Below, piece by piece: positions 21,528 to 48,082 of a stretch of DNA of 64,000 nucleotides. The notes beneath the pieces were generated by a model that saw only the letters and a program-made list of their open reading frames with translations, had not been told where the DNA came from and searched no databases. Numbering within the stretch: position 1 is the stretch's first letter; the number at the start of each line of letters is the position of its first letter. The DNA comes from Rhynchopus sp. YZ270_cl-10 (taxonomy: Eukaryota), in contig OZ037837.1 of NCBI GenBank assembly GCA_964035575.1, positions 1,674,001 to 1,738,000 on the forward strand, given 5' to 3'. The translations under genes were made by a program, and so were the position numbers.

Positions 21528-21536
21528 CCCAATCCC

Positions 21537-21778
21537 CTGTGTATACTGTGTATGTGTATACTGTGTATACTGTGTATACTGTGTATACTGTGTATACTGT
21601 GTATACTGTGTATACTGTGTATACTGTGTATACTGTGTATACTGTGTATACTGTGTATACTGTGTATACTGTGTATACTGTGTATACTGTGTATACTGTG
21701 TATACTGTGTATACTGTGTATACTGTGTATACTGTGTATACTGTGTATACTGTGTATACTGTGTATACTGTGTATACT
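21537..21778. repeat. (TGTGTATAC)n 9-mer tandem repeat
   Basis: Directly visible, adjacent to the pentamer array. Confidence 0.98.
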
Positions 21779-25192: not shown

Positions 25193-25985
25193 GGTTGTGA
25201 TGATGGGGAAAAAAGAAAATAAAAGAAAGAAATTTGGAGAGGAGGATTGTCGAGTTGATATAGAGTATCAAAAGAAGAAAAAAATGGTGAGAGGATATTG
25301 GGGGTAATCCAAGGAAGGGGACCCCGTTTCGGGGTGCCAAAAAAAAAAAAAAAAAAACGCAAAAAAATTCAAGAAAAGGTCACAAAACTTCATTTTTTTT
25401 TGTGATTTTTTGCTATGTTTTTCTTTGAAACGTCCTGGATTACCCTAGGGGTAAGGGGAAGGATTTGGGGGTTTTTCTAAACCCGAAAAAGAGAAGTGTT
25501 TTGCATTCCTCATCAAAAGTAATGTGATATTGTGTCTATTGTAAAAACAAAACAGTGGAGATTGCACAAACTGTGGCAACACAACCGAGGCAACTACACT
25601 ACAACAATTTATCAAACAAAAAAAAATATAAGAAAAGTTGTCAGACCAGAGAGTTTCCTATTTTCCACCTGATTTTTCCTGAAATTTGGTGTTTAGTGGT
25701 ATCAAAACCACTTTTAACACCACTAAACTCCACCAAATTTCAGGCAAAATCAGTTGAATTTCGTCTTATCTCTGCCACACTCTTTAGGGATACGGGGTGT
25801 GCTGTCTGCAAACATCCTAAGCCTCCAAACTACGTGGCATTGAGCAGTCACAAGAACACGTCTCGGGGGCGAGCGATTTATAACAAAAAAAACATAGTGG
25901 AGCACACTCTAGGGTGGCTACACTAATACAACCAAGTTTTCAAAAAAAAAACTATATTTTTTTTCCTTTTCTTTTCTGTATTATC

Positions 25986-26808
25986 CACGTATGGCAAATG
26001 ATAATTTATTATGAGATCTCATAATAAATTATGAGATCATTATGCGCTATTATGCGCGCTCATAATAATCGCATAATGCATAATAGCGCATAATAGCGCA
26101 TAATGATTATGCGCTATTATGTGCTCATTATGTGCCCTACCCCAATGCCCCAAACCAGAAAATACCACCCTCAGATGTCCAAAAATCCATCTGCGCCCGG
26201 TTTTGAGCAGTTTTGAGCCTCAAGAAGCCCCGTATCTGCTTTTTTCAAAAATGTACATACAACTTGTACCTGCCCACCCCTCGTAGATAGAGCAACTCAC
26301 ACATCCATCACGCCTCAGTGTGAGCCAGGGGCCAGAAAAGCCCTCAAAGCCACATATTTTCACCCCAGAACCTATCCCGAGGGGTACCCAGGCGGTTTCG
26401 GGGTGTTTAGAGGGACTTGGTGGAACTTAGAACCATGTTTCAAAAAGTGTCAAGCACCTGGTACCAAAGGTTTTCCCACCCAAGGTATCTTAAGCCGTCA
26501 AAAAACGTGAAGTAGGTAATAAATCAAAGAAAACCCCCTGAAGTCAATAAAAACCACACCATAGGCCCATTTGTACCCCAAAATCGAATTCCGCCCGGTT
26601 TTGGGCACTTTTGACCACTTCTGAGCGACTTTTTTTGGGTGGGGGGGTGGGGGGTACGGCACATAATGAGCGCATAACGCCGCATAATTGGCGCATAATA
26701 GCACATAATAGCGCATAATAGCGCATAATAGCACATAATAGCGCATAATATCACATGTATTATGAGATCTCATAATAGCGCATAATATATTATCATTTGC
26801 CATACGTG
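25986..26808. mobile_element. TIR element with subterminal CATAATAGCG/TATTATGCGC repeats
   Basis: TIR CACGTATGGCAAATGATAAT / ATTATCATTTGCCATACGTG. No clear TSD, so the superfamily is unassigned. Confidence 0.75.
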
Positions 26809-28578
26809 TTAAAATTATCAGTATTTATTTCTTCCACAAAAGCGGGTTACCACTTTTTGAGTTTTCATTATTATTTTTTTTACATAACAGCATCTTTTGG
26901 GTGTACCGACGTGTGAAAACCACCCAAAAAAAAAAAAAAAACACCGGTAAACAAATTAAAAAGGCACCCCCCCCATCGATTTACCCCTTGAGGGCCATTC
27001 TTTGGCCATCCAAAACCGCAAAATGCGCTACACCATAACAACACTGTTGGGTGTACCGACGTGAGCTTTCTTTGAGTTTTTAGATGTCCAAAACAGTCTC
27101 AGGCAGTCCCAACCATAGGTGCTCACCTAGCGTGGTCGACAGTCAAACCTGAATTCATTATCTCATCTTCTGTCAAAACTCTTTCGGGATTGAGACATTC
27201 TGTCTGAATAAGAGTTATTATCCCACCTCTCTTTTGTGGAATATTATATATGGGATATATGGGTATGTGTCCACACGAGGCACTAAGAGTCTCTAAAATT
27301 CACCTCTCCATGGCTACTTGCGTTTGGAACTCAAGGTTGTGAGTACTGTACGGTAATCTGATGCCTTCATACGTACTAAGGTAGAGGAAGCATTTTTAGG
27401 TGACGAAGAAACACAGAGAGGCTTTAGGGTCAGAACTGCACGGTTGGGGGTCCTCCCGGTACACCAAGGTCATGTACCAAAGGTGCACTGCCACGAGAGT
27501 GCTTTGTTTTTTCAAGTCAAATTGCAAGTTTCATTTATTGTCCTGGCCTTTTGTTGTCATGATACGAAACGAGTGTTTCTTCCCTACTTTTCTGATCTCC
27601 CTTTTTGTTGCTTTTTTTTTGTTCTTTTTTGACTGCATCCGTGGCTAACAACTTACAGTTTTTTCTTCTTTTCAATGTATTTTCAAAGAGAATAGCAGTC
27701 TTTTGACAACAACGAGGGTGATGGTCAATTACTGCCCCCAAGGGTCGGGGATCGTCTCCAGCCTTTCTCGATTTTTTTTTATTTTTTACGCACGCTACTT
27801 TCACGGAACGTATCGCATCGTTCACTCACCCAACCGTGCTCCGCAACACCACCACCCAACAGGTGAGAGATAGTGTGTGGAAGCCTCAACGCAAGCCAGT
27901 CAACATTCACTAAATAACTGGGAAGATAGGCCTTACAAGGTCGTAAAAAACGTAAAAAAAAACGTTAAAAAAAAAGTACGTATTTTTTCTACACCTCATA
28001 TAGTCATCTTTCAAGTTTTTTTTTTTTGGTGACCATATTTCTTTCTTTTGTTTCAGTGCCGAGGTCCAGGGCACTTTGCACTTCCCACATAATTTTTTTT
28101 GTTCGCTGAGAATGATTTGAGTTCCCCATTCCCCCCCCCCCCCCCATTTCCCCCCCCTCATTTGATCACTCCAAACAAAAGCATTTCAACAAAAGCTAAA
28201 CATAGTATTGCCAGACCATTATTTTGTGTTCTCAGCCACACTCTAAGGAATGTGAGATTGGTGAAGCGTGTGACCTAGGTTCATTTTCTTTTTTTTGTTT
28301 TGTTTTGTTTTTTTTTGCAATTCTATTATTTTTTTACCGACACAAGAAATACTAATATTGGAATCTGGAGCGATTCCACTACGTACCTTGTGTTGTGTCT
28401 CTCTGTCTGGCTTCTCCCTTTTTCCCCCTCCCTTCCCTACAGGACCGTGAAAAGGATTTGAATTGTAGTTTTACTTGGAGTTTTCACCGTTGTAAACCAA
28501 CGGTTAAACCACAAATAAAACCACAAGTCAAATCAAAAAGCTGCTCTCAAGGGTTGAGAACGACCTTTTTACTGTATC

Positions 28579-29325
28579 CAGACTTTCCGCGCTGAAGAAT
28601 CCGATGAAGAATTCTTCGAAAAAAAAAAAATCCCTAAAAAAAAAATTTTTCCAGTGAAGAATTCTTCATTGGAAAAAAATAAAAATAAAAAAAATTCCCG
28701 GAAAAAAAAAAACCCCCCCCCCCACATAAGCCTCTGAGAGTGACCAGAACTGGCCTCATGAACAAAGTGACCCCGTCACAGCCAGAACGCGACTCAATTG
28801 ATCAAACGCCGAACGAAAAGGAAACATGCAGCATGGCGAAAGGAAAAAAGTAGCGTACCGTGCGCCTGCGGCGCAAGTTTGCAACCCACCTTCCCATGAC
28901 ATAGTTTGGCTGTAAAAATGTGCAATTTTAAGCGCAATTTTTTGAAATGTTGCGTACCGTGGCTTCGCCAGGAGCCTTGATGCTATGACCACCGTTTCTT
29001 TTTGTACACGTACTGAGGTTACTGATAATTCGTGTGTCTGGTGCAAATATCAATCAAGTTGAACTCCTCAGTTGGATACCCGAGGAATTCTCTCATTCCG
29101 GGTCGGGCTCGACCGCGCTTTTTTATTTTATTTTTTGGAAATCTCAGGGACTGCGCTGGGACGCGTGTTTTGGGCCAGAACTCTAGTTTCTCCGCCGGAG
29201 GCCCTGAACTTGCGTTAACTTCCGGCGCGCGTAGCGCGCCGGGCTCGGGACGTATTTACCTTTTATGTACAAAATCACGATTCTTCATCAAAAATCGTAC
29301 CCAATGAAGGAGCGCGGAAACACTG
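28579..29325. mobile_element. hAT-like MITE, family C
   Basis: Imperfect TIR CAGACTTTCCGCGCT / AGCGCGGAAACACTG, 8-bp TSD ACTGTATC. Contains the shared GCGTACCGTG core. Confidence 0.85.
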
Positions 29326-32300
29326 ACTGTATCTCACAAAAAAAAAATTATTATAGTGGAGTTCATCCTCGGGTGTCTACACTAATACAACCAAGTTTTC
29401 AAAAAAAAAAAAAAAAGGCTTTTTTTTTTTTACGCACACTACTTTATGAGCGGAAAAGTGTCACGTCGTTCACCCCAACCATACTCCGCAACACCATCCA
29501 ACAGGTGAGAGATAGTGTGTGTGGAAAACTTCAAACGTTCCACACACACTATTCAAACGCATCAAACAACTACAAGAAGGGGAGGGGTGAGGGAACGACA
29601 AATTACACTTTTTTTTTTCTCCCCAACAATTGAGTACCCTAGTTCGCACCAACGGGTACGTGGAGATGCGTAGCAAACAAAAAACTGTCTGTCTTCAGCA
29701 CCTTTTCCCCACTTCTTTTCGAAGCTTATGTATTTGTTTTGAGATACACTGTCACGAGAGGGATTTTGTATTTCAAGCCACATTTCCCCCCACCCCCTAT
29801 TTTTTCTGTACGGTACGTTTTGGCCCCCCCATGTTTTCCCTTCCCCATCGTCTCACTGTTTTGTATTTCTAGACTCAAAGCTAGAACCTTTATAAACCGA
29901 GCGTTCTTTTTAAGTGGTACCAGTGACGCTGTCTGCAAAATCTCTCTGGGCCACGTAACATAAAAATAAAACCCATCTTTTCTGTATCCCGAGTGACTAA
30001 GCACGCGAGGTTTGGGATCAGCTGTTCCACTTTATTTCTTTGGTGTACTTCGTTCGGGAGCAAAAAGAAAGGGTGCATGTGTTGACCCTCTCAAATACTT
30101 TCAGTTCTGTGAACTAATTATGTGAATCTATAAAAAACAGTGGATATTGCACAACCGTGGCAACTACACTACTCCAACAATTTATCAAAAAATAGGGGAA
30201 ACAATCTCCAAAATAAAAATAAACAAAACACTTCCCTCTGTAGAAAAAAGTGGAGATTTTGCACAACTGTGTCAACACAACCACCTACGCTAGATAGAAC
30301 AAAAAGAGCGGCCACACTGCCACGGCAAGCGCTATAGTGACGAGAGTGAATACCAAGTATATTATAAATGTTAAAAATGTAGTCTGTGGCATTCCTTATC
30401 ATCGATACCAGAAATTTTTTTTCAAAAAAAAAAGTGATTTGTTCGCCCCCTAAAGCCATCCCCTCGTAAGTAACATTTCACCCCCCTTTTTTTTCTCTCT
30501 TTTTTGAATAATTGTGTTGGGCTTTTGTGGCGTACTATGAAGGTAAGGTCGGAGGCTTTGATCAATATCAGTTTCTGTGTCAGAATGTGTGCACACGTGG
30601 AGGGCACATTCTTTTTCAACATTTTTTTTTAAAGAAGTTGATACGGTTGAAAAGGGATTCAACAACACAGGAGACATACGATGGAAAATAAGATGGTCGA
30701 AAATTCTCGGAGAGAATGGTGCAGGGCTGCCTCTCGAATGAAAGGAGGGGTGCGAGGATAGGACCATCCTGAAGGAGCACGGATGAGTCATACTGGAATG
30801 ACTAGTCGTAGTGATGATGAGTCAGTCATGTGACCATTGTTCGTATCCATAGAAACCAGCCCATCGTGCAAAAAGTAGTTTCATTCCATCAATTTTTTTT
30901 ATCATAAACAACCGAAGCTGGCATCTGACAAGAGGTACGGTACGCCTAAAAACCAACTGTTTTTTTTTTTTTTTTTTTTCAAAAAAAAGAGAAAAGAGAA
31001 CAAAAAAGAATGTCACAAGAGAGGGACGCTTGCGGGGCTATATATTTTTTTTGTGTATCTTGCTTCTTTGTTTTTTCTTTTTCTATTTTCAGTGTGGCAC
31101 TGGGGTCTAACATATGTACTGTCTTCCTCTGTTTTGGCTCATTTTTTTTTTTTATCTTTTTTTTAAAGGTGTGTGTGTGTGTGTATGCATGTTATAAATT
31201 CAATTTTTTCCCCGGGAAATTCCTGCACAGAATATTTCCCAAGGCACAGCAAATGAATCTGATGCCCCTCCCCGTTTTTTTTTTTTTGTGTTTTTTGAGT
31301 GCATTTCGCCCAAGTGAGGAGGCATGACTAAAGACCAAAAGAATATTTTTCTTGTCCAGATATCGTGTCTTGCCCTGACTACATAGGTAATAGCAGTGGT
31401 AGTTTTTTTTTTTGTATTTTTTGCAAGACAAACAGGCAATCAGTTTTTTCTTTGTTTATTCCTCACTGCGGGATGCTGACCAAAACAAAATGTGTGATGT
31501 ACGCATGGCGCATTGGTCTTCCTTCGTTTTCTGTCTTCTCTTGTTTTATTTGCTTTATTTGCTCTCATCTGACAAGATGACGTGTGTTTGCTGTTTGCTG
31601 GTACTTTTTTTACTCATTTTTTACCCATTTATTGGTAACCCCCCCCGCCGGTCCCCCCCCGGAGAGTGTTCTCCCTCACCAAAGTGCAACAAAGTGAGTG
31701 GTTTCCAAAAAAAACAAAATCCTCCCTTTTTTACGCACACTACTTTATAAGCGGAAAGTGTCACGTCGTTCTCTGTACTCCGCATCACCATCGCCCTGCA
31801 GGTGTGAAATAGTGTGTGTGGAAGCGTCAACGCATCAAACACCAAGAAGGGGGGTGAGGGAACGACAAGTGACACTTTTTCAAAAAATAAAATAAAATTT
31901 TAACGGCAGGTCTTCTGTCTTTTTAGAAAAACAAAAACAACAACAAAAATATTTTCTGGCTTTGACACACCGCTTTTCCCCCTCTTTTAGTACCTTTGCT
32001 GTGTGGTTCTTCTGCAAGGTTGTTGCTTATCTTTTTCATTTTTTGAAATTATCATTTTTTACATTTTTTTGCTCCTTTTTTTTGTCAACAAAAAAATGAA
32101 AAATCCCTCAGAGCAACAAAAAAAATTGCGTCCTTGCTCTTCTCTTCCCACAGTCTAATCGCTGTGCGCGAAAAACAAGAATAAAAGGAACCTATTCTTT
32201 TTTGTTGCCACATTTTTTGACATCATTTTTTGTTGTCCTCTCTCATGGAGTTGCCTCTCACCGAGTTGCCTCTCACCCTTTTTTTTTCAGTGTCTGCGTC

Positions 32301-33427
32301 CGCCGATGTACGGTGAGGCGTTTGCACTTTCAACTTTTCTTTTTTTTTTGTTTTTTGCTGTTTTTTTTTTTGTACATATCAACGGAGTATCATGTTCCCC
32401 AACTGATTTTTCCCCTGAAATTTGGTGGAGTTTAGTGGAGTTTAGTGGTGGTATTTAAAAATTGAAACCACACTCCTACTTTTCTTTTTTATGTTTTCAC
32501 CCACCGCAAACAATAACGCAATAAAAAACAATAAAGGCAAAAGGGAGAGGTTGTGGTGAAACGCACACACCTCGACCTGTCGGTGAAACAGACTACTTCC
32601 TGTCAACACCAGTATAACATTTTGTGGTATTTAAACACCACCAAAACACCACCAAAACTCCATCAAATCTTCAGGCAAAATCAGGTTGGGTTCCCAGCCA
32701 TCTCATTTGGGTGCACATGAGGCAGTGTCCAGCTTCCAACTTTTTCTTTCTTTCAGTGTTCTTCACCCAGTGCTGACCACACCGTCTGTTCCCCCCTTTC
32801 TGTTGCATTGCGGCAGGACGTTAAAGGGCACAGATCGACTTTTCTTTCTCCATCTCTCCTCTGGCCTCAAAATTGCACGTCGTAAATTACCAAGTTTATC
32901 CAAGGAAAAGGCAAAATAAAAAGGACCAATTTGGGTCGTAGGAAAAAAAAATGAAGCTTTTTTAAAAAAAGCAGAGTTCGTTACCCCCTCTCTCCCGTCT
33001 CCATTCTCCTCAGTGCGTTTTTCGTAAAAATGGCCGCGGGGGTTTTTTGTAAGGTGATTAAGCGCGAGACAAATTGCCACCCATGAGCAGCAATAACACA
33101 ACAAAAAAAAAAAAAAAACAAACAAACGGCTGATGTCATGAATAAACAAACCAAAAAATAATCTAATCAGACTCAGCACGAGAGGCTTAGGGTCATCTTA
33201 TAAGCTTTTCTCTTTTGTTTTATTACCTTACCGGTACCGGTATCCAAGAGGGGTGAAGGAAGGTTGTGGGAAAAGCCTTATTATACACAAGGTCACACAA
33301 CGCACCCATGCGCTTTTCAGAAAATGACTTGGCACAGCACGGCGTTAATGTGTTTAAAAACCAAACTATAGCTGTGAGATAGTTTCCCAAGGTAAGGGTT
33401 GAGGTATTTTTTTTTTTGGTCCTCACA

Positions 33428-34196
33428 CAGGGCGTTCGCTATCGCCATCGTTTTTTCCTGATCGTGGCGAAATGCCAAAAAACCCGAAATTTTTGGTTTT
33501 TTACTAGTGCTTAAAATAGGTCAAAAAAAATTTCCCGCCGGAGAGAAGCTAGTTCGTGGGGGTGAATCCCTGGTACTGAGTGGTCAAAAAAATTTTGCGA
33601 TTTGCGCGTGATCCCTTCCCCAGCACAAGTGCTATTACAGCTGAACTTTCCTGATATTAAAACCAGCAAAACGATGGAGAATTTCATCAATCCCCCCTCA
33701 CTGAGGGTCTCTTTGTGCTGTTTAATCAAACAGATGTACAAGAGAGAGGCATCTGTCATATGAGACTTCATCCTTATTTTGACTATTTTCAATAAACTAA
33801 AACGTCTCTCTGCCGTTGAAGGTAGAGTTGACACGAGTAGTGACACCTTCTATACCAGGGGGTACTGGACACCTTCAGCAGACTGCAGGATTGAGGAGCG
33901 AGCAGGAGTGCTGGGGAAACTTCCTTTCACGGCAGGCGGGTTTGCGGATGATTTTGAGTACAGTGGACACCCCCTCTGCGACCCCCCCTCCGGGGGGGTC
34001 GACAGGGTGGTGGGGAGAAATCTCTCTCTCTCTTTTTTTTTTTTTTTTTTTTCCCCCTTTTTTTTATTTATTTATTTATTTATACAGGGTTTCGCCCCGG
34101 TGGGGCGAAGCCCTGGGGCGAAATAAAATATCATTTTTTCAGGAAAAGATTTTTTTAACGAAAAAAAATATTTTTCGCCCCGGGGCGAACGCCCTG
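33428..34196 (-). mobile_element. hAT deletion derivative, family B (inverted copy of 6048-6810)
   Basis: Same TIR CAGGGCGTTCGC, 8-bp TSD TCCTCACA. hATC remnant ORF at 33511-33846 on the minus strand. Confidence 0.9.
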
Positions 34197-34206
34197 TCCT
34201 CACAAA

Positions 34207-35667
34207 CAGGGTTTTATCTTGAAAAAGCATTTTAAAATTCTACCCGGTCTACCCGGTCTGCAGTGTTTCCGCTATGAAGATATGACCCAAAAAATCTTCA
34301 AAAAAAAAAAAAAATCTGGGATTTTCCCGTTTTTTCCCATGAAGATATCTTCATGAGAAAAAAAAAAAGAAAAAGAAAAAGAAAAAAAACCAGAAAAAAA
34401 GGGGAGGCAGGGCGTCGCGCGCGCGCGCGAAGCGCGTCTTATCCCCTTCCTGGTATCATTGTGAAGAGGATATAGCGAGGTAAAGTTTCAGACCGTGCCC
34501 CCAATTCCCTCAATCTTTGCACCATTTGACAAAGAGTGAGAATAAGGGATCGACAAAAATAAAAAAAGTAGCGTACCGTGCGCCTGCGGCGCAAAACTTA
34601 TGAGCGGAATCCCACAGCCCTCTACCATAGTTTGTCTGTAAAAATGGTTGATTTTAAGTCACAATTTTTGAAATGTTGCGTACCGTGGCTTCGCCAAAAA
34701 GTTTTGATATTATGAGATCCGCCGTTTCTTCCTGTACTGAGGGAAGGCAGGCGTAGAAAAAACATGAGAAAAAGCGTTGGTTTGGTTCTTGATGTACATT
34801 ACCATCCCACGTCATCACGTATTTACCTGAAATGGACGGACCTTTTCGCGCGGAGCGCGAAAAAAATTTTTTGACCCCTTTTTGGACATATCTTCATATC
34901 TTCACGGTTTTGGAAAAAAAAATTTTTCCATGAAGATAAGCGGAAACCCTGCCGGTCTGGTAAAAAAGTGGTCAAAAAAAAAAAATTTCGCCTCTGGCGA
35001 AAATGTCCCGGTAAACCGTTAAAATTGCTGCATTCACTCGCATATTGCATATCATCTCGCGTTCCCCACCTTTGCGGAATAAGCAAAAAAATCATGTCAG
35101 GTCGGTAGCGTGCGGACATATAGACATCTACAAAAAGAAACTGCAGTCATGGCAAAGGTTCCTGGCGAAGCCACGGTACGCAACATTTCTAAAAAAATGT
35201 TGACATCAAATGGCACTGTCGTTGGTCATTATCGTCAGTTCCCGTAAATGTTACTTCCATATTTTGCTGAACGAAAGTTTTGGCGAAGCCACGGTACGCA
35301 ACATTTCAAAATATTGTGCTTAAAATTGCACATTTTACAGCCAAACTATGTCATGGGTGGGTTGCAAGCTTGCGCCGCAGGCGCACGGTACGCTACTTTT
35401 ATCCTTTCGCCATGCTGCATGCTTCCTTTTCCTTCGGCGTTTGACCAATTGGGTCGCGTTCTGGCTGTGACGGGGTCACTTTGTTCATGAGGCCAGTTCT
35501 GGTCACTCTTAGAGGTTTGTGTGAGGTACCCCCAAGATTTATCATTTTGGGTTTTTTTTTGGCCTGGCCGGGTGGTTATTTTTTTTTTTTTCCCCAGACC
35601 GGGTAAATATTTTTTTTTTCTTTTACCCGGTCTAGGGACCACTAACATATAAGGAGATAAAACCCTG
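34207..35667 (-). mobile_element. hAT-like element, family A (inverted copy), carrying a nested insertion
   Basis: TIR CAGGGTTTTATCT, 8-bp TSD CTCACAAA. Lacks the family B insert present in the 6000-7537 copy. Confidence 0.88.
34261..34951. mobile_element. hAT-like MITE (family C-related) nested in family A
   Basis: TIR CAGTGTTTCCGCT / AGCGGAAACCCTG, 8-bp TSD CCGGTCTG. Confidence 0.85.
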
Positions 35668-35728
35668 CTCACAAAATTTCAAGAATGTGTCCAGTCATTC
35701 ACAATAGTGTTCTCTCCCCCCCCCTAGG

Positions 35729-36544
35729 CATACTGTGCGGGCGAGTAAAAAAAACTCGCCTACTCGCCAAAAACTCGCCTAAAACTCGCCTATTTTTGGG
35801 GGGCGAGTTTTGGCGAGTTTTTTTTTTGGTAGGGATTTTACCTTGGGAAAAGTGTACACACGAAAATATGAGGGAAATTTGAGTTTTGAAGAGAAAATTT
35901 TTTTCGTTCCACTTGAACAAGACCTCTACAGTTTGCTTTGTAGGCTTCCACAACCAGTACCACCAGTCCAGCTGTAGCTTCTGCGGATCCATGAAGCTTG
36001 CACAGATGGGTGCGATGTAGTCGTGGGGGAGTACCGCCAAGGGGTGGCCTGCAGGGTTGCCATTTACCGGCATGGCGAGGACATTGTTGTATAGCGAGTG
36101 TAGCCCCGGCTCATGTCTTCGTCATCCTCCGGATTGTAGCACGTCTTGTCCCCCGGGATCTATGGCACGCCTGGATCTTCCCCTGGAGCAAATGTTTACA
36201 TACATGCCTGTCAGCCACTGCCGTGACATGGTTGCCTTTAGACGTACAAGTGACACAATTTCAATTTTTTTGTGTTTTCGAGTGGCATGTTGTCATCAGT
36301 CACCCCCGCCCTCCATTTTCACATCCTGGTGCACATTTTCACCCCCAAGGTGCGTATGTGCACCAGGATTTGCACCCAAATTGGGGCGAGTTTAGGCGAG
36401 TTTAGGCGAGTTTTTGGCGAGTTTAGGCGAGTTTTGGCGAGTAATAGGCGAGTAATGGGCGAGTAGGGCGAGTTTTTGGCGAGTTTTTCCTGAAAATCAG
36501 GAAAACGAAAAACTCGCCTAAAAACGGCTCGCCTGCACAGTATG
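35729..36544. mobile_element. TIR element with GGCGAGTTT subterminal repeats
   Basis: TIR CATACTGTGC(G/A)GGCGAG with CCTAGG on both sides (35723-35728, 36545-36550). Weak hATC-like peptide PGLHSLYNNVLAMPV on the minus strand. Confidence 0.75.
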
Positions 36545-37805
36545 CCTAGGGGGGGTCAAATGCACTTAAAAAAACGATACAAACGTCATTTTTTCGAGTT
36601 TTTGATAAAAACGCATTATTTTGGATGATTGAGTAGAAATTTTGACCAAGAACCTCTCAAAAACATCGTGGGGGGTGGTTTTCACGCCAGAGGGGGATCA
36701 CATGCACCCCAAATGGTGAAATTCCAAAAAAAAAAAAAAATTGCCCATGACTGGTACCGGCCCCACCAATTCCTTAAGGAATTAAATTCCGATTTTTTTC
36801 ATTTTTTTTGCGATTTTTTTGCTCAAAAATTGACGATACCCTGTTTTCGGGGCAAAACTCTCTAATTTTGGGCAGTTCCGTGTGAAAATATGCAAAAATA
36901 GTCAAAAATTGGAAAATCGTTAAGGAAATCGTTAAGGAAATCCTTAACGACTTAACGTGGGGTACCAATCATGGGCAATTTTTCAATTTTCACGTTTTAG
37001 CACCTCCTGGGCCCGAAAAATGGGTCAAAACCGACCGACAAACAGTTTTCCACACGATATGTGTCACATTTTCGGGTCAGATTCACTTAGAAATGCGTTT
37101 TTATCGAAAACTGAAAAAAGTGGGTTTGTATCACCCATTTGACCGCCCCTACTCCCCCCCCCCGCCCCGCCCCCGCCCCCCTCTCTCCCGTTGAAGTAAT
37201 GGTTCCCTTCGCACCTCTCTGCCCGTAGTAACAGTTCGGCTTCTGAAAGAAAGGCAAAAAAATATTTTTAAAAAAGCAAAACAAAAACAAAAAAAGAGAA
37301 AAAAAAAACAAAAGAATGCTCGCTACCTTTCTAATCGCACTCCCCCAACCAATCACAGCCCCTTTTTGTTTCAACCTTAGCATCGACGTCCATTCACGGA
37401 TCCTCCGACCACCCCCCTACAGTACGAGAAATTGTCCCCCGTTTTTCCGTACGAGATATTGTCCCCCCCTCACTTTTCCCCCCATGCAGGGTGGACAATT
37501 TCACGGGGGGAGGGTCGGTATACGAAATATTCGAATTTTACAACCTACCCCCTCACCCCCTCGGACACAAGATAGTAAGGCTAGATACTCAACAAAGTTT
37601 AATGCAATCTTGCTTGTCGTTACCTTTTGCAGTTAACATCAAACTAAAATGCTTTTTTCGGCAAAAAAACAAAAGCCAAAATAATACACAGAGAACAAGC
37701 GAATTTTTCAACATACAAACGATCTTTATATACCCCCTCACCCCCTCATCCCCAACACCAACGCAGGTGTACCCAACGCAACGTGACAGTATCCTTAGTG
37801 AGAAG

Positions 37806-40800
37806 ATGGGATCCGGAGCGTCGAAGCCTGAAAAAGACAATATTGCAAAAGCAATTACAGGGAAGGAGAGGCCCGTGGACGCAGCGGACAGCGTGGACGG
37901 GAGGACAATGCTGCACAACGCTGTTATTGCGGGGGATGTGGAGGCAGTGCGGTTTCTTGTGAAGAATGGGGCAGGGAACGTGCGTGACAGGGACGGGAAG
38001 GTGCCGCTGTGGTACGCACTGCAGCACAGGGACGCGGATGTGCGGGGCCGACTTGAGGCGGAGCTGGGGGCGCATGCAGCAGAGATCCTTGTGGAGGTGG
38101 AGGTGGCTGTGGAGAGATACCTCACTGATGGTGTCGCGACAGGGGAGGCTTCCGAAAGGAGCAGGCATGTGACATCAGACAAGAACACAGACGCGGCAGC
38201 AGGCAGACCCGGTGAGGATGACGTAGAAGCACTGCGGCGCACAGACGGACGGAAGGTGGAGTGGCTGCGTAAGGAGGAGAACCACACAAGCAGCAACAAC
38301 AGCAGTGGAGGTCAAGACCTGCTGTGCTGGCTGCGTGGTCTGCCAAATGTGGACCCGCCATTGGGCTACACAGACGAACACGTGCGACATATGGAAGCGG
38401 GGTTCCGTGTGGTGTGCAGGCGTCTGCTGGAGGACATCGCTAGCCGTACAAAGTCTTCCACCGCAGGAAAGCGCAAGAAGAGCATGGGGACACATGGTGG
38501 ACACGTGGAGGTGGAGGACTGGATGGCGGCACGCGACCCGTTTGAGCTGCTGCTGTCGGGGTTTCTGTTCACGTCTGACTGTGTGGAGTATGTGCTGGAC
38601 AGCGGCGGGGATGTTGTGTGCGACGAAAAGGGCACACCGCAGATTGCGAAAGGGCCGGACGGGAAGCTGCGGTACATCAGACTGACGGAGCGGGCTGTGC
38701 TGGACAACCATGGGAGTGCTGCTGATTCACAGTCGCTTGCGCTGTACATGACGATGAACACTGCGATGCGTGCTGTGGGGTGGCTGCCTGCGGTGAAGGA
38801 GTGGAAGGGGACGACAGCACCGAACGTGTTTGAGCTGTCGCCCGCACCCCCGCAGCTGCACGTGATTGCGACCTTTGCGCCGCTGATCCGTGGTCTGGAC
38901 CGGCTGATTGGGAGCCGTCGGAAGCAGCTGCGGACTGTGTTCCGCGGGATCAATGTGAACGTGTCTGCGAAGTACGCGCTGAATACACACATTGTGTGGA
39001 ACTGCTTCACGTCAACAACACTGAAGCGGGATGTGGCTCAGAGCTTCATGTACGGGAAGGGTGGCACGTTCTTTGTGGTGGTGGCGAAGGAGGGTGCTGC
39101 AGACGTGAAGTTCTCGTCTGTGTATGCTTCGGAGGACGAGCTGCTGTACACAGCGAACATTGAGTACCGTGTGCAGTGGAAGCTTTCGCCGACGCTGCTG
39201 CGGATGATGGGGCTGCGCTTTGACGTGATTGTGATGCAGGAGGTGTGTTCTGGTGTGGGTGAGACGAGCCCGGCTGAGCAGGTGGGTGCGCTGCAGGAGG
39301 TGATGGGACACACAGTCGCGTTCTTTGAGGACTACCTTACGCAGTACGTGGAGGGGCGTGTGGGGGACGACACACGTGTGGATGAGTCGGAGACACGTCC
39401 GCTGATGGAGGAGGTGCGGAGGTGGCTTCGTACACGTGGAGGTGTGAAGCGGGCGTCCGCAGCGTGCACAGAGTCAGGAGTGGATACGAAGAAGGGAGCT
39501 GTGCAAAGGAAAAAGGTGAAACCCATCAAGAAGAAGAAGAACAGCACAGCAGAGGGGAAAATAGAAACAAAAGGCATACGGCCAAGACCAGTTGCTTCTG
39601 GTGTGCTGTGTGTGATCGGAGAAGGAGGGAGCGGGAAGACGTCTGCTTCGATTGCAATTTTGAGCGACCTTGCAACGTCTGCGAGGAAGAGCGGAAAGAC
39701 CAGTAGCGAAGACACAAACAGGAATAGAAACAGCGTGGTTGCTGCGGATGCGAAGCCGTACTTCCCTGTGTTTGTGGCGCTACCGACTGTGAAGCAGCAC
39801 CTGCTTGAGAAGGGAGGGCTGGACAGATTTGTGCTGGAGTCGTTTGCGCTGCGGGAGGCGGACCGTGCGTACCTTGCGGAGACGTACGAGGTGGTGCTGG
39901 TGCTGGACTCTCTGGACGAGGTGGGGCTGACGAAGGAGGACGTGCGTGCTGTGGTGGCTGAGGGTGGCCTTCTGTGCCGGCACCCGTGGGTGGAGGCACA
40001 CTGCAGCGTTGTTGTGACTGTGCGTGGTGAGTACCTGAAGGGTGTGGACACGTCCCCGTCTGGTGTGTGCGGTGCTGGTGTATGTGCTGTGTACATGCAG
40101 CCGTTCACAGAGGTGGATGCGAGAACGTACATCAAGCGTGCAAACACAGCCTGGGAGAAGGAACACAAAGAGGAGAAGAAGAAGGCAGATCTCATGGTTT
40201 TCGTGCGTGAGGAGGACATTGAGGGACTTGTGCAGCTGCGGAACCCGTTTGTGCTGCACATGGCGTGCCACGCGCAGTGCAGTGGGAAGGCTTCTGAGGA
40301 GGTGATCTACGAGACCTACTTGAAGACGTGGACGAAGAAGGAGATGGCGTCTAGTGGAGTTGCTGTTTCGGATGTGTCCTTGGAGGATGTGGTTCGTGCA
40401 GGGGAGCTTGTTGCATGCAGGATGCTGGAGACAAACGAGTGGCAGGGGACTGTGGGTGTGGCGTCGGAGGTTCTTGATTCGCAGCACAGTGTGTGTGAGG
40501 GTGTGCGGGATGCGTGCTTCCGCTGCTTGCCGTTCCGTATTGAGGACTTTGGAGAGGAGCGGAGTGCATTCACGTTCCGACACAAGTCGCTTGGGGAGCA
40601 CCTTGCAGCACGGCGGCTTGCACGTGATCCAGCAGGGACACTGAAGACACTGGTGCAGCGAAGCTTCAGCAAGGACTCGCAGCGTGTGCTTGGGTTCTTT
40701 GCGGCTCTGGTGTGGGCTGAGAGTGAGCTGTATGAACGTGCCTCCAGAGCGCTGCTTGCGGCTGTGAAGGGAACACGCAAAGGTGCAGGTGAGTCAGCAG

Positions 40801-42866
40801 GGTCGAATGCAGCAGCACTGCTGGCACGTGCACGCATCCCTTTGAGTGGGGAGGACCTGAGCGGGATTCGTTTGTCGAACTGCGACCTGCGCGGGTCTCT
40901 GTTTGTGGAGACGGTGCTGACGGGCACTTCCTTCTCGAACTGCTGGCTGGAGCACACTGAGTTCCATACCTGCGACATGGGTGGCACGATGCTGCCTAAC
41001 TGCTCCCTTGGCACACCACTTCCTCCACTGCGCTTTGAGTCGGTGGTATTGGCGGTGGCAGTGACGCCTGATGGATCGCAAATAGTTACAGGCTGTGGTG
41101 ACAACTTTGTGAGCATCTGGGACATCTCGAACGCGAGTGAAGTTGCACGCATGCCAGGGCACACAGACGAAATATTTGCCGTGGCCGTGACACCTGACGG
41201 ATCACGCGTGGTTTCCTGCTCTCGAGACATGACAGTGCGTGTGTGGGACATACGCGGTGCACAGGAGCTGCTAGCAATAGAAGTGATGAGCCAAGTATTT
41301 GATGTGGCTGTGACGCCGGACAGTACTAAGGCTGTTGCCTGCGCCCACGACAGGACTGTGCGCGTGTGGGATCTCACCACTGGGAAGGAAGTGCTGCTGA
41401 TTAAGGGCGAGGGGCACCATGTTGCAGTCGTCGTAACACCCGATGGGAGCCAACTTGTGTCGTGCTCCGGTAATGTGTTGTTGGTCTGGGACCTGGCCTC
41501 TGGCAAGCAGGTGCTGCAGATGGCGGGCCATGAGGGCAATGTCAATGCTGTGGCTGTCACTCCCGATGGGGCCCACGTTGTTTCAGGCGCAGACGACAAT
41601 ACGGCACGTGTTTGGAACGTGTGCAGGGGCGAGGAGGTGATGCTGTTCCAGGGGAAGCTTCCGTTCACAGCTGTGGCAGTTACCCCCGATGGGTGTCACG
41701 CAGTCGTAGCCTCGCAGTCTTACAACATGCACGTGTGGAGCGTAGCCACGGGGAAAGAGGTGATGGTGCTGCAGGGGCATACGAAGAAAGTTACCAAGGT
41801 CGCAGTGACACCGGACGGATGCCACGTGGTGTCTTGCTCACACGACTGCACTGTGCGTATGTGGAACGTCACGAGCGGGAAGGAGGCGCTGCGTTCAGAA
41901 CGGCACTCCGCTCCAGTCCAGGGAGTCGCAGTGCTGCCCAATGGCGACGTTGTCTCATGCTGTGGCAACACTGTGCGTGTGTGGAGCTCCTGCAGTGGAC
42001 AGCAGACACAGCTGTTTGAAGGGCACACGGGCGCTGACCTGCAGGTGGCAGCATTCGCAGATGGGTCTCATGTTGTGTCCTGCTCTGCGGACAAGACCGT
42101 GCGTGTGTGGAACGTGCACACGGGGAGACAAGTCCGCATGTTCAAAACACCCCACCAGCCACTCTCCGTCGCAGTCACCCCCGACGCATCGCACATCGTG
42201 CTAAGCCTTGACCCTGAGACCGTCCGTGTATGGAGCCTGTCGAAGGGGGAGGGGGAAGGCGCAGTGTTTCAAGGGCACGCTGGTGACGTCATCGGAGTCG
42301 CGGTGACGCCAGATGGATCTCACGTAGTGTCCTGTGGATACGACATGACTGTTCGCATGTGGAAGCTTCACACTGGCGAGGAGACAATGGTGTTCAAGGG
42401 ACATCGCAATGCTGTCAGCGGTGTGGCTGTGACCCCTGATGGGTCTCGTCTCGTGTCATGCTCCTGGGACAAGACCGTGCGTGTGTGGGATGTCGCAAGC
42501 GGGAAGGAGGTGCTCAGCTTGGTGGGAAATTCTTCTTTTGTGCACGGAGTGGCGGTTACACCGGATGGGTCACGTGTGGTGTCGTGTGCAAAAGACGGTG
42601 CCGTGCGTGTGTGGAGCATTGTCAATGGTCTGGAGGTCGCAGCACTGAAGTTCAGTTGTCCGTTGTACAGTGTTGCTGTGAGCCCCGATGGGCACGATGT
42701 AGTGTGTGGGTGCGCCGACAAGACGGTGCGTGTCTGGAGCATCGCCGCTGGGTTGCGTCTCAAGAAAGTGCTGGGCCTCCCTCACACCGTTCCTCATGTG
42801 TCTGAGTGCAAGAACGTTGGCACTGTGGAACCCGAGCTAGCGAGGCGCATTCTTCTTGGACAGTGA
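37806..42866 (+). CDS. NLR-like STAND protein: N-myristoylation motif, ankyrin, ADP-ribosyltransferase, NACHT, pentapeptide repeats, WD40 array (intronless, ~1686 aa)
   Basis: Motifs: MGSGASK start; DGRTMLHNAVIAGDVEAVRFLVKNGA (Ank); TVFRG..WNCFTSTT..YASEDELLY (ART R-STT-ExE); VIGEGGSGKTS (Walker A); VLVLDSLDE (Walker B); FTFRHKSLGEHLAA (WHD); DLSGIRLSNCDLRGS (pentapeptide); about 13-14 VAVTPDG...TVRVW WD40 repeats. Confidence 0.92.
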   Translation: MGSGASKPEKDNIAKAITGKERPVDAADSVDGRTMLHNAVIAGDVEAVRFLVKNGAGNVRDRDGKVPLWYALQHRDADVRGRLEAELGAHAAEILVEVEVAVERYLTDGVATGEASERSRHVTSDKNTDAAAGRPGEDDVEALRRTDGRKVEWLRKEENHTSSNNSSGGQDLLCWLRGLPNVDPPLGYTDEHVRHMEAGFRVVCRRLLEDIASRTKSSTAGKRKKSMGTHGGHVEVEDWMAARDPFELLLSGFLFTSDCVEYVLDSGGDVVCDEKGTPQIAKGPDGKLRYIRLTERAVLDNHGSAADSQSLALYMTMNTAMRAVGWLPAVKEWKGTTAPNVFELSPAPPQLHVIATFAPLIRGLDRLIGSRRKQLRTVFRGINVNVSAKYALNTHIVWNCFTSTTLKRDVAQSFMYGKGGTFFVVVAKEGAADVKFSSVYASEDELLYTANIEYRVQWKLSPTLLRMMGLRFDVIVMQEVCSGVGETSPAEQVGALQEVMGHTVAFFEDYLTQYVEGRVGDDTRVDESETRPLMEEVRRWLRTRGGVKRASAACTESGVDTKKGAVQRKKVKPIKKKKNSTAEGKIETKGIRPRPVASGVLCVIGEGGSGKTSASIAILSDLATSARKSGKTSSEDTNRNRNSVVAADAKPYFPVFVALPTVKQHLLEKGGLDRFVLESFALREADRAYLAETYEVVLVLDSLDEVGLTKEDVRAVVAEGGLLCRHPWVEAHCSVVVTVRGEYLKGVDTSPSGVCGAGVCAVYMQPFTEVDARTYIKRANTAWEKEHKEEKKKADLMVFVREEDIEGLVQLRNPFVLHMACHAQCSGKASEEVIYETYLKTWTKKEMASSGVAVSDVSLEDVVRAGELVACRMLETNEWQGTVGVASEVLDSQHSVCEGVRDACFRCLPFRIEDFGEERSAFTFRHKSLGEHLAARRLARDPAGTLKTLVQRSFSKDSQRVLGFFAALVWAESELYERASRALLAAVKGTRKGAGESAGSNAAALLARARIPLSGEDLSGIRLSNCDLRGSLFVETVLTGTSFSNCWLEHTEFHTCDMGGTMLPNCSLGTPLPPLRFESVVLAVAVTPDGSQIVTGCGDNFVSIWDISNASEVARMPGHTDEIFAVAVTPDGSRVVSCSRDMTVRVWDIRGAQELLAIEVMSQVFDVAVTPDSTKAVACAHDRTVRVWDLTTGKEVLLIKGEGHHVAVVVTPDGSQLVSCSGNVLLVWDLASGKQVLQMAGHEGNVNAVAVTPDGAHVVSGADDNTARVWNVCRGEEVMLFQGKLPFTAVAVTPDGCHAVVASQSYNMHVWSVATGKEVMVLQGHTKKVTKVAVTPDGCHVVSCSHDCTVRMWNVTSGKEALRSERHSAPVQGVAVLPNGDVVSCCGNTVRVWSSCSGQQTQLFEGHTGADLQVAAFADGSHVVSCSADKTVRVWNVHTGRQVRMFKTPHQPLSVAVTPDASHIVLSLDPETVRVWSLSKGEGEGAVFQGHAGDVIGVAVTPDGSHVVSCGYDMTVRMWKLHTGEETMVFKGHRNAVSGVAVTPDGSRLVSCSWDKTVRVWDVASGKEVLSLVGNSSFVHGVAVTPDGSRVVSCAKDGAVRVWSIVNGLEVAALKFSCPLYSVAVSPDGHDVVCGCADKTVRVWSIAAGLRLKKVLGLPHTVPHVSECKNVGTVEPELARRILLGQ

Positions 42867-43565: not shown

Positions 43566-44936
43566 ATGGATCTGCATGTCCAGACCTTTTTCAACAAGAC
43601 GCTCCTGGTCGAGGTGGAGATGGATGACACAACTGCGGACATACGGCGGAAGGTGGCGTCTGCAGCAGAGTTGCGCGAAGACGGCTTTGACATAAGCTTT
43701 GGCGGGAAGGTGATGGCAGAAGGAGACGACACGACGCAGCTGAGTGCTGGGGACACGATTGTGCTGACGAAGAAGAAGTCGCAGAAGGACGACGCCATTG
43801 CAGCACTTCGTGACTCGGGTGAGACCAGGCTGACGACAGAGAGGTTCGAAGGTCTGACGGATCCCAACCTGGTTCGTTTGTTTCTGCAGGCGGAGGTTGT
43901 TACCGAGATACCCTCACAATGCTTGGAAAGTGGCACGTTCGAGGAACTTGATCTCAGTGGTGTGTCAGGTGTGACGACCGTAGGCGACGGCTTCTTCTCC
44001 AAATGCAGTGTGTTGACGACACTTGACCTGTCTGGGTGGGACAGTGTTACGCACGTTCACAGAGACTTTCTCTCTTCGTGCAGTTCGTTGACGACAGTTG
44101 ACCTGTCTGGGTGGAGTAATGTCACACAAATTTCTACGTGCTTCTTGTCCGACTGCAGCACATTGACCACCCTCGACCTGTCTGGGTGGGGCAGTGTGAC
44201 GACCATTCACAACCACTTCCTCAGCAACTGCAGCGCACTGACCGCTGTTGACGTGTCTGCGTTCCGCAACGTCACGTACATCGGGGAGTTCTTCTTCACC
44301 GGCTGCAGCGCGTTGACGACAGTTGATCTGTCTGCGTTGAAAGGCACCTCGGTGGTGGGCAGAGGCTTCCTCTACAGCTGCAGCGGGTTGACAGCACTTG
44401 ACTTGCATGGGTGGAGCAATGTAACGGCCATTGAGGAATTTTTCATGCTCGAGTGCAGCGCGTTGAAAACCCTTGACTTGTCTGGGTGGAGCGGTGTGGA
44501 GATGGTTGGTGAAGCCTTCTTCACCTCCAACAAAACGTTGACGACGCTGGACATGTCTGGGTGGAGCAGGGTTGCGTTGGTTCAGCACGGCTTCCTCCTC
44601 AACTGCAGCGCGTTAAAAACCCTTGACCTGCATGGCTGGAGCAATGTCACGCAGATTGGGAATTACTTCCTCACCGAGTGCAGCGCGTTGAAAACCCTTG
44701 ACCTGTCTGGGTGGAGCAGTGTCACTGATGTGCATTTTTACTTTCTCTCCAAATGCACTGCACTGAGGAAATTAAACTTGTCTGGGTGGAGCAGCGTGGA
44801 CTGGATCGGCGGCGACTTCATGAAAGACTGCGAGATACGTACGTGGGGGGTCAAAGTCACTGGATCGAGCAGCCTAGTGTCCAAAAGGGTGCAGGATGAG
44901 TGTTTCACGAACAATTGCAGATGTGTGTGCATGTGA
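43566..44936 (+). CDS. Ubiquitin-like domain + 25-aa LRR (BspA/LRR_5-like) protein with C-terminal CaaX box
   Basis: MDLHVQTFFNKTLLVEVEMDDTTADIRRKVA...ISFGGKVMAEG (UBL); about 12 repeats of LxTLDLSGWSxVTxIxxxFLxxCSA; ends ...CRCVCM-stop. Confidence 0.9.
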   Translation: MDLHVQTFFNKTLLVEVEMDDTTADIRRKVASAAELREDGFDISFGGKVMAEGDDTTQLSAGDTIVLTKKKSQKDDAIAALRDSGETRLTTERFEGLTDPNLVRLFLQAEVVTEIPSQCLESGTFEELDLSGVSGVTTVGDGFFSKCSVLTTLDLSGWDSVTHVHRDFLSSCSSLTTVDLSGWSNVTQISTCFLSDCSTLTTLDLSGWGSVTTIHNHFLSNCSALTAVDVSAFRNVTYIGEFFFTGCSALTTVDLSALKGTSVVGRGFLYSCSGLTALDLHGWSNVTAIEEFFMLECSALKTLDLSGWSGVEMVGEAFFTSNKTLTTLDMSGWSRVALVQHGFLLNCSALKTLDLHGWSNVTQIGNYFLTECSALKTLDLSGWSSVTDVHFYFLSKCTALRKLNLSGWSSVDWIGGDFMKDCEIRTWGVKVTGSSSLVSKRVQDECFTNNCRCVCM

Positions 44937-46495: not shown

Positions 46496-48082
46496 ATGTT
46501 GAAGGGTTTTTCTATGCGATTTGTGCGCGACAGAAGGATGATTCGGTTCGGTCGACGCTGGAACACCACACATGTGGCGAGTGAAGTGCCTGCAGCACAT
46601 CTTTACACAGATGAGAACGGGATGACTGCGTTGCACTGGGAGGTACAGGAATATAGTCCTGATCTGGTCAAGTTTCAGGCACTCATAGATAGAGGGGCAG
46701 ACATCGAGGCAAAGGACGACAGGGGTCGTACGCCTCTGCTCGAGGCTAGTTCTGAAGGCAACCTCAGCATTGTGAAGATGTTGATCAAAGCAGGTGCAGA
46801 TGTGTGTGCCACAGATGAAAACAAAGACTCGTGTCTTACCATTGCGGCTGATGCCCATCAAAGAAATTATGGACACGACGAGACTGTGCACTATCTTGCG
46901 GGCTTGCCAGAGGTGGATGTGAATCACAAACCAAGGAACAAGCGCACTGCGTTGTACCGTGCACTGATGAAAGGAGACTCTCGAATGATAGATGCGCTCA
47001 TTGATGCAGGGGCAGACGTCGAGGCAAAGCCCATCTGGGGTCTTCCGCCTCTGCTCGATGCTAGTTCTGATGGCAACCTCAGTATTGTGGAGACGTTGGT
47101 CGAAGCAGGTGCGTCAGTACGTGCCAGAGACAACGAGAAACATACACCTCTTACCATTGCAGCACAGTATGGACACACCGATACTGTGCGCTATCTTGTG
47201 GGCTTGAAGGATGTGGACGTGAATCACACAGCTCATGAAAACGAGACTGCGTTGCACAGTGCGGCGACCGAAGGACACTCTGATATGGTGCAGGTGCTCA
47301 TTGATGCAGGGGCAGACATCGAGGCAAAGGACGACATGGGATGTTCTGCCCTGCTCAAGGCTGCGGCTAGTTGTAAAGACAAGCTCAGCATTGTGAAGAT
47401 GTTGGTCGAAGCAGGTGCGTCAGTGCGTGTCATCAACGACAACGAAGACTCGTGTCTTACCCTTGCAGCACAGCATGGACACACCGAGACTGTGCGCTAT
47501 CTTGTGGGCTTGCCTGAGGTGGACATCGAGGCAAGGAATGCTCATGCTCGTCCTCTGTTCCTGGCCAGCGAGAACGGGAATACCGCAATTGTGAAGACGT
47601 TGGTCAAAGCAGGTGCGAAAGTGTGTGTCACAGACAACGAAGGTCGCACGTGTCTTGACATTGCGGCTGGTAATGGACACACCAAGACTGTGCGCTATCT
47701 TGCGGGCTTGCAGGAAGTGGACGTGAAGAACGTACATCATCAACACTTCACTGCGTTGCACAGGGCGGTGAGCAAAGGACATGTCGATGTGGTGCAGGTT
47801 CTCATTGATGCAGGGGCAGACGTCGAGGCAAAGGACCGGATGGGACGTTCGCCTCTGCACTGGGCTTGTGAGGAAGGAAGGTTAGCAATTGTGAAGATGT
47901 TGGTCAAAGCAGGTGCGGAGGTGTGTGCCACAGACAACGAAGGTGACACGTGTTTTACCACAGCGGAAAAGAATGGACACACCAAGACTGTGTGCTATCT
48001 TATGCGAAGGGTCGTATTATTAACCTTAAAAACTCTTCTTTTTGTTTTTCTTCTTTTTTCCACCAACGTGTGTCCGAGATGA
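46496..48082 (+). CDS. Ankyrin-repeat protein (~13-14 repeats) with an Arg-rich N-terminal presequence-like segment
   Basis: Repeated G.TALH / LIDAGADIEAKD / GHTETVRYL motifs. N-terminus MLKGFSMRFVRDRRMIRFGRRW. The 3' end may be spliced further. Confidence 0.88.
   Translation: MLKGFSMRFVRDRRMIRFGRRWNTTHVASEVPAAHLYTDENGMTALHWEVQEYSPDLVKFQALIDRGADIEAKDDRGRTPLLEASSEGNLSIVKMLIKAGADVCATDENKDSCLTIAADAHQRNYGHDETVHYLAGLPEVDVNHKPRNKRTALYRALMKGDSRMIDALIDAGADVEAKPIWGLPPLLDASSDGNLSIVETLVEAGASVRARDNEKHTPLTIAAQYGHTDTVRYLVGLKDVDVNHTAHENETALHSAATEGHSDMVQVLIDAGADIEAKDDMGCSALLKAAASCKDKLSIVKMLVEAGASVRVINDNEDSCLTLAAQHGHTETVRYLVGLPEVDIEARNAHARPLFLASENGNTAIVKTLVKAGAKVCVTDNEGRTCLDIAAGNGHTKTVRYLAGLQEVDVKNVHHQHFTALHRAVSKGHVDVVQVLIDAGADVEAKDRMGRSPLHWACEEGRLAIVKMLVKAGAEVCATDNEGDTCFTTAEKNGHTKTVCYLMRRVVLLTLKTLLFVFLLFSTNVCPR

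Follow-up and report, generated by a model that had tools for sequence, protein, structure and literature searches.

The stretch of DNA analysed here (the window) comprises 64,000 nt of Rhynchopus sp. YZ270_cl-10, a euglenozoan protist and probably a diplonemid (contig OZ037837.1, positions 1,674,001-1,738,000 of the forward strand; all coordinates below are those of the window). It carries a gene (37806-42866, + strand) that consists of a single uninterrupted open reading frame (ORF), from the ATG at 37806 to the TGA at 42866, and encodes a protein of 1,686 amino acids. According to Pfam and a family hidden Markov model (HMM), the domains follow one another in the order myristoylation motif, ankyrin, ADP-ribosyltransferase (ART), NACHT module, pentapeptide repeats and 14 WD40 repeats, a layout of effector, nucleotide-binding oligomerisation domain (NOD) and repeat sensor. 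We consider it probable that this protein is a ligand-gated, autoinhibited receptor similar to NOD-like receptors (NLRs) with ADP-ribosylation as its output, likely serving the protist as an intracellular non-self receptor. An NLR-like receptor with an N-terminal ART effector had been proposed by the original prediction, made from the DNA letters, and this proposal gains support from a structure model of the ART, from relatives whose transcripts join the domains, and from the pattern of variation across the family.

The family was collected by a search with residues 230-800, which returned 80 proteins. Besides the window protein itself, these are 59 relatives with 78-86% identity and 20 that are more distant. 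By protein clusters, the close family has at least 60 members. Among the 59 close relatives, groups of 27, 7 and 5 (the last together with the window's own record) each list a longest contig of the same length. We interpret these groups as paralogues lying in clusters, although the 59 may stem from more than one genome.

The ART, with an N-terminal helical part, spans residues 169-480 (38310-39245, +) and is assigned to the R-S-E class from PF01129 (28.2 bits, cut-off 22.3, E 1.4e-6) and from its model. The triad of Arg, Ser-Thr-Ser/Thr and Glu is present in order (R380, S403, E445), with each motif where the original prediction had placed it. Arg380 of the catalytic motif (38943-38945, +) is Arg in 60/60 close family members and 19/20 distant ones, and the same counts apply to the Ser of the S-T-T motif (Ser403; 39012-39020, +). 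In the E443-D-E445 motif (39132-39140, +) both Glu are found in all 60 close members, and in 17/20 and 18/20 distant ones respectively. The structure model of 38310-39380 has a predicted local distance difference test (pLDDT) score of 86 and matches Vis, HopU1, ExoS and C3 in Foldseek (best E 8.5e-8). By structure comparison, HopU1 reaches Z 14.1 (208 residues aligned, root-mean-square deviation (rmsd) 3.9) and ART2.2 reaches Z 13.6, with unrelated rows at Z 4 or less; in fact, the top 21 structural rows are all ART folds of the R-S-E type, and 19 chains score Z 8 or more. The region 38700-39250, on whose folding as an ART the original prediction had staked itself, is thus predicted to adopt the R-S-E fold. 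Searches of the PDB by sequence were not significant (HopU1, E 0.41; otherwise pentapeptide rows only). In the ART catalytic core, DNA variants in public contigs comprise 8 synonymous against 2 non-synonymous changes, over 103 and 305 sites, and synonymous changes are present in the R380 and S403 codons themselves; these counts are small tests rather than codon models.

What would such an enzyme do? An E-x-E motif is the criterion for an arginine-specific ART, and it is found here as E443-D-E445; we infer arginine specificity from this motif only. The same receptor logic could also end in NAD+ hydrolysis or self-modification, draining NAD+ or yielding ADP-ribose, as the TIR and SIR2 effectors of signal transduction ATPases with numerous domains (STAND) do. 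Cleavage of NAD by an effector is an established output of STAND proteins (10.64898/2026.09.21.753143), and ART folds can work as NADases (10.64898/2026.10.19.760177). Moreover, Q-x-E replaces E-x-E in 6 of 75 distant members, and an output that needs no substrate would also account for a frozen ART sequence. We nevertheless find this outcome unlikely, because E-x-E is kept in the window copy and its close relatives (60/60) and because HopU1, Vis and ExoS, which we take to be arginine-modifying transferases, are among its closest matches in fold.

Downstream of the ART, the model outlines a NACHT-type STAND module (39255-40830, +) made of a helix preceding the nucleotide-binding domain (NBD), a basic linker of low confidence (~39441-39590), the NBD itself, helical domain 1 (HD1), a winged helix and a helical domain. 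Walker A (39618-39641, +; K611, T612) and a NACHT-type D-x-x-D-E Walker B (39900-39920, +; D701, E705) have their key residues invariant in 80/80 proteins. A sensor-1 T-x-R (40014, +) is kept in 59/60 close and 17/20 distant members, and the F-x-H motif of the winged helix (40575-40610, +) in 60/60 and 19/20. The structure model of 39255-41030 (pLDDT 82) finds NACHT NLRs in its top Foldseek rows (NLRC4, E 2e-9), and in the VIA comparison the nine best rows are again NACHT NLRs, ahead of NB-ARC, Avs and ORC rows (NOD2: Z 14.3, 392 aligned, rmsd 5.2). We thus assign the NTPase to the NACHT class on the strength of this model and of relatives that pass the Pfam NACHT cut-off (P0093, 26.9 bits; P0110, 41.4 bits).

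The C-terminal part, where the original prediction had seen a WD40 array, holds 14 WD40 repeats (41037-42752, +; 307.7 bits) that are predicted to form two 7-bladed propellers and to act as the sensor. Counted with the family HMM, exactly 14 repeats occur in 53 of the 60 close members; the other 7 were left out of the entropy and distance comparisons, and the window protein was left out of the within-blade entropy. The contrast between this region and the rest of the protein is strong. All-versus-all identity among the 53 members is 97.5% in the ART core and 94.4% in the NTPase versus 73.8% and 67.9% in the two WD40 halves, and columns with an entropy above 2 bits number 71/559 in WD40 and 0/1,040 elsewhere. 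The differences concentrate at the positions of the propeller top faces (mean 0.73), as compared with 0.215 in the scaffold, 0.20 in linkers, 0.14 in bottom loops, 0.06 in NACHT and 0.025 in the ART. The top-face difference exceeds the linker difference in 1,377 of 1,378 pairs, which are non-independent, and the same pattern is seen inside one contig cluster of 23 genes (top-face 0.68 versus bottom 0.086 and ART 0.019). In fact, the 53 genes have 52 distinct top-face signatures, and the window protein itself carries a divergent type of sensor (46-55% identical to the others) on an ART that is 97-98% identical. WD40 variability had been suggested as a check, and across these 53 members it reveals hypervariable top-face sites.

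The variable sites fall at familiar places. The positions that vary most in the same blade across genes are 9, 11, 27, 8, 29, 28 and 7 of the 42-position profile. We aligned this profile to the HET-E repeat by anchoring on GH and WD, with the repeat and its positions taken from PMC12222747, and 6 of the 7 coincide (hypergeometric P 9e-6) with HET-E positions 10, 11, 12, 14, 30 and 32, which have a high ratio of non-synonymous to synonymous substitution rates (dN/dS). Position 39 of HET-E, also of high dN/dS, is not variable in the window family. As a separate observation, in two relatives, P0070 and P0071, the WD40 repeats resemble one another more closely (mean 68-69%, max 82-87%), a hint that one branch may turn over its repeats as HET-E does.

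How far does this architecture reach? Named relatives come from Lacrimia lanifica, Namystynia karyoxenos, Diplonema papillatum (P0080), D. ambulator, Artemidia motanka and the 'Hpha' transcriptome, which we take to be diplonemids, and from Papus ankaliazontas and Apiculatamorpha spiralis, presumably free-living kinetoplastids. The ART, NACHT and WD40 regions lie in one ORF in complete transcript-derived proteins from L. lanifica (P0076, P0077) and 'Hpha' (P0075), so that the joining of ART and NACHT in transcripts, which the original prediction depended on, is seen in relatives. A wider search gave 196 representatives at 50% clustering, and the following results are from the best 150 of these 196. 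They include 132 new representatives, 75 of them with both ART and NACHT, in ART-then-NACHT order in 74; an E/Q-x-E match is found in 63 of the 75. A Pfam scan took in 46 of the 132 (45 of the 75 ART-NACHT proteins, plus P0106). In 32 of the scanned proteins the tails are propellers (18), TPR (5), LRR (2) or none found (7), and among the 14 further ones ankyrin tails and N-terminal RCC1 or ANF-receptor domains also occur. LRR-tailed relatives are P0081, P0152 and P0189. Because the ART-NACHT order is kept while tails and N-terminal domains differ, ART-NACHT is a stable cassette with exchangeable flanks (WD40, TPR, LRR, ankyrin) in diplonemids and free-living kinetoplastids. In a quick tree of 24 ART-NACHT segments with long branches, the window protein groups with ENA relatives. 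Close relatives were not found in JGI metagenome contigs, viral contigs or GTDB genomes, by pattern searches that reach close relatives only. On the side, P0137, P0153, P0155, P0166 and P0082 have ART-NACHT cassettes that are either preceded by an ANF-receptor or RCC1 propeller and followed by little tail, or that end in hydrophobic helices; such members may carry their sensor at the N-terminus or on the other side of a membrane.

Taken together, the conserved enzyme and switch, the hypervariable WD40 top face and the exchangeable tails lend independent support to the non-self receptor reading. The same breadth could also suit receptors that signal without killing, sensing prey, symbionts, metabolites or kin, with ADP-ribosylation as a reversible regulatory mark: within Euglenozoa the ART-NACHT cassette is ancient, with fusions to PDZ, SAM, RCC1, phosphatase-like and ANF-receptor domains, and another ART-containing gene of different architecture lies in the same window. 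We regard such a role as rather improbable, because hypervariability at HET-E-like sites, clustered copies and truncated members make up the pattern of conflict genes.

Several observations weigh against a non-self receptor with an ADP-ribosylating output. Over the whole stretch 38700-39260, the variants amount to 9 synonymous and 8 non-synonymous changes, 6 of the latter in loop residues 326-337. An E/Q-x-E match is missing from 12 of the 75 distant ART-NACHT proteins, several of which are fragments. The Pfam NACHT score of the window copy is 14.2 bits, below the cut-off of 26.7, and nSTAND1 is also sub-threshold (20.7 versus 27.1 bits); the Walker A, Walker B and winged-helix motifs named in the original prediction are present, and the profile match that it suggested as a check falls short for this copy. 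Unlike in HET-E, internal repeat identity in the window gene has a mean of 46% and a maximum of 63%, and any repeat pair at 80% identity or more occurs in just 5 of 69 proteins. That the sensor surface is diversifying is suggested by protein differences, not by codon-level dN/dS; WD40 top faces generally tolerate change, and gene conversion, by homogenising the linkers, could make them a poor neutral clock. The short tails and N-terminal RCC1 or receptor-type domains of some relatives fit general signalling as well as immunity. Finally, the ART motifs are lost in some relatives (P0068, P0078). Such degenerate motifs would be in keeping with an ART that serves as a decoy or adaptor, the signal leaving through the ankyrin or helical region, a role that we hardly credit: no part of the protein is more conserved than the ART core, whereas a decoy should vary, and ankyrin is missing from many relatives.

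The non-self receptor that we favour resembles several known systems in parts. Like the fungal HNWD/NWD NLRs (Podospora HET-E and HET-D), it joins an effector to NACHT and WD40, with 14 blades in two predicted propellers, and it shares with HET-E the variability at the six repeat positions given above (PMC12222747). Unlike in HNWD proteins, an ART replaces the HET domain, and the window protein has an extra myristoylation motif, ankyrin and pentapeptide repeats; a Pfam HET match is absent from residues 1-515, where ankyrin and ART are found instead. Repeats more than 80% identical within a gene are a criterion of the HNWD family, whereas the blades of the window family lack such high internal conservation and keep their positional identity (73% for the same blade across genes versus 40% between blades). 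The term 'ADP-ribosyl' occurs 0 times in the accessible text of two fungal NLR surveys (PMC9815663, PMC4986451). In fungi, effectors are exchanged on similar NACHT domains (PMC4986451); the euglenozoan family shows the reverse, with a fixed effector and changing sensors.

With animal NACHT NLRs (NOD2, NLRP3, NLRC4, NAIP), the protein shares motifs and the modelled fold of NBD, HD1 and winged-helix domain, but identity is 11-16%, the effector is an enzyme in cis rather than CARD or PYD, and the window member carries WD40 rather than LRR. Like bacterial NACHT and Avs/STAND antiphage proteins, it is an all-in-one tripartite protein with an enzymatic effector, pentapeptide or propeller tails and a diversifying C-terminus (10.1101/2022.07.19.500537); 'ADP-ribosyl' is not found in the accessible main text of that preprint, and PADLOC matched 0 families in the ART-NACHT part of the window. 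In its predicted fold and R-S-ExE triad, the effector is like the R-S-E (cholera-toxin-like) ARTs HopU1, Vis, ExoS/T and vertebrate ART2.2. It differs from these in being only 10-21% identical, cytosolic and placed before a STAND switch, with no secretion or delivery parts seen. TeTIR/TEP1 and other NADase-STAND proteins also carry an NAD-using effector on a STAND protein, and in the published cases this is a TIR-type NADase, not an ART. A cluster of 68 eukaryotic proteins in the ESM Atlas, mostly from rotifers where assigned, combines NACHT (100%), TIR_2 (81%) and ART (79%; score 0.87, a lead only). The ART-NACHT pairing may thus not be confined to Euglenozoa, although this rotifer cluster, unlike the window family, also has TIR. 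By analogy, the window protein would work like an HNWD or a bacterial all-in-one NACHT receptor while belonging to neither.

The remaining features of the gene are found at its start and between its modules. A second in-frame ATG lies upstream at 37602 and would add 68 residues. This extension is not conserved. Of the 59 close relatives, 35 have MG as their predicted start and 22 carry extensions of 12-115 residues, in which 1-4 of the last 12-30 residues agree with those of the window protein; 2 have no match to the pattern used. Moreover, 5' ends are trimmed in Euglenozoa by spliced-leader trans-splicing (PMC10161547), and 37806 is therefore the likely translation start. It opens on MGSGAS (37806-37823, +), the predicted N-myristoylation motif (Gly2, Ser6) that the original prediction had pointed out at this N-terminus. 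An MG-x-x-x-S/T motif lies 5' of the ART in 69/80 proteins of the first family search, with MGC in some relatives, and is N-terminal in only 2/75 distant ART-NACHT proteins, whose starts may be mispredicted. The Gly2 membrane anchor is thus a prediction at the level of a motif, common in the close family and rare beyond it, and would be accessory rather than core. The ankyrin and pentapeptide repeats foreseen from the sequence both pass their Pfam cut-offs: about two ankyrin repeats at residues 12-78 (37839-38039, +; Ank_2 35.9 bits, cut-off 27.3, E 1.1e-8; Ank_4 E 6.3e-9) and pentapeptides at residues ~1017-1068 (40854-41009, +; PF00805 34.2 bits, cut-off 20.2, E 1.8e-8). An NCBIfam scan of the window protein gave only sub-threshold ankyrin and pentapeptide rows. 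A frameshift or intron artefact was ruled out by the single ORF and by public contigs, possibly derived from the window's own source runs, that match the WD40 region with 0-1 differences.

Around this gene, the window contains other repeat proteins. Directly 3' of it, the gene at 43566-44936 (+) encodes a ubiquitin-like domain and BspA-type LRRs with 75-nt repeat units. Many related public contigs match its 5' part, and it is therefore probably another expanded, possibly variable receptor-like family. An all-ankyrin protein follows at 46496-48082 (+; 11 repeats matched, hydrophobic C-terminus), making three repeat-protein genes in a row on one strand. The second ART-containing gene lies at 8627-16216 (+), a frame of 2,529 codons with PF01129 sub-threshold at residues 863-985 (E 1.5e-4). 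It keeps the R and S-T-S motifs, has G-E-E instead of E-x-E and carries a degenerate R motif near residue 1775; its N-terminus resembles, by eye, a dimerisation/docking helix pair, and no NACHT was seen in it. A 5-nt microsatellite of about 2 kb and, after it, an array of 9-nt repeats occupy ~19600-21800 and give spurious long ORFs in all frames.

Upstream of the ART-NACHT gene, the region 25700-37250 is gene-poor, AT-richer and carries nested inverted repeats. One pair has arms of 171 nt at 28720-28890 and 35356-35526 that are 94% complementary, and 35718-37122 holds shorter pairs. These are likely nested non-autonomous transposons. The small inverted repeats at 35718-37122, upstream of the gene, could fit a selfish, self-amplifying, toxin-like family whose copy number is driven by transposons rather than by host benefit. 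AACRNL offers an earlier example of a selfish gene with an ART in free-living eukaryotes; it is a diphtheria-type ART, and the accessible text on it mentions neither an NTPase nor WD40 (PMC12957317). Within 25000-46500, the ART-NACHT gene is not flanked by any pair of inverted or direct repeats, and a diversifying sensor together with deep conservation across Euglenozoa is unexpected for a selfish family; we give this explanation very little chance.

How might a receptor of this kind operate? To explain these features we propose a cycle whose dynamic steps are all inferred from NLRC4, HET-E and bacterial NACHT proteins. At rest, the protein would be ADP-bound and closed, held by the His of the winged helix. 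A ligand, either foreign or an altered molecule, would dock on the top faces of the WD40 propellers, lying in a clamp between the two, and this would provoke the exchange of ADP for ATP and oligomerisation of the NACHT switch. Release or clustering of the ART would then switch it on, possibly at a membrane through Gly2 myristoylation, and the enzyme would take ADP-ribose from NAD+ and attach it to arginine on a conserved target. Since the copies differ in their sensors but hardly in their ART, we envision that many inputs converge on a single output and a single conserved substrate. This substrate would more probably be a protein of the host, with growth arrest, death or signalling as the consequence, than a variable protein of an invader.

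A full-text literature search found no description of an ART-NACHT receptor, and supplementary domain tables or subscription papers could mention the fusion; in the accessible text of the D. papillatum genome paper, the terms WD40, NACHT, ADP-ribosyl and 'immun' occur 0 times. The gene is an intact member of an apparently undescribed euglenozoan NLR-like family with an ART effector. More tentatively, Euglenozoa could possess a large NLR immune repertoire of their own, in which a fixed ART-NACHT cassette is combined with swappable sensors and arginine ADP-ribosylation, carried out by an enzyme of the cholera-toxin fold, is the executioner output. The detection of viruses, intracellular bacteria or non-kin by free-living protists is a largely open question, and this family offers defined receptors, a variable surface and an enzyme that make it directly testable, with the homologue P0080 in D. 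papillatum, the model species of the group. If confirmed, it would give one of the most diverse groups of marine protists a family of receptors for innate immunity or allorecognition. NLR effectors would then include an R-S-E ART, and NLR outputs would extend beyond pore formation, caspase recruitment and TIR-type NAD cleavage. Fungi and Euglenozoa would moreover have diversified the same WD40 positions independently of each other.

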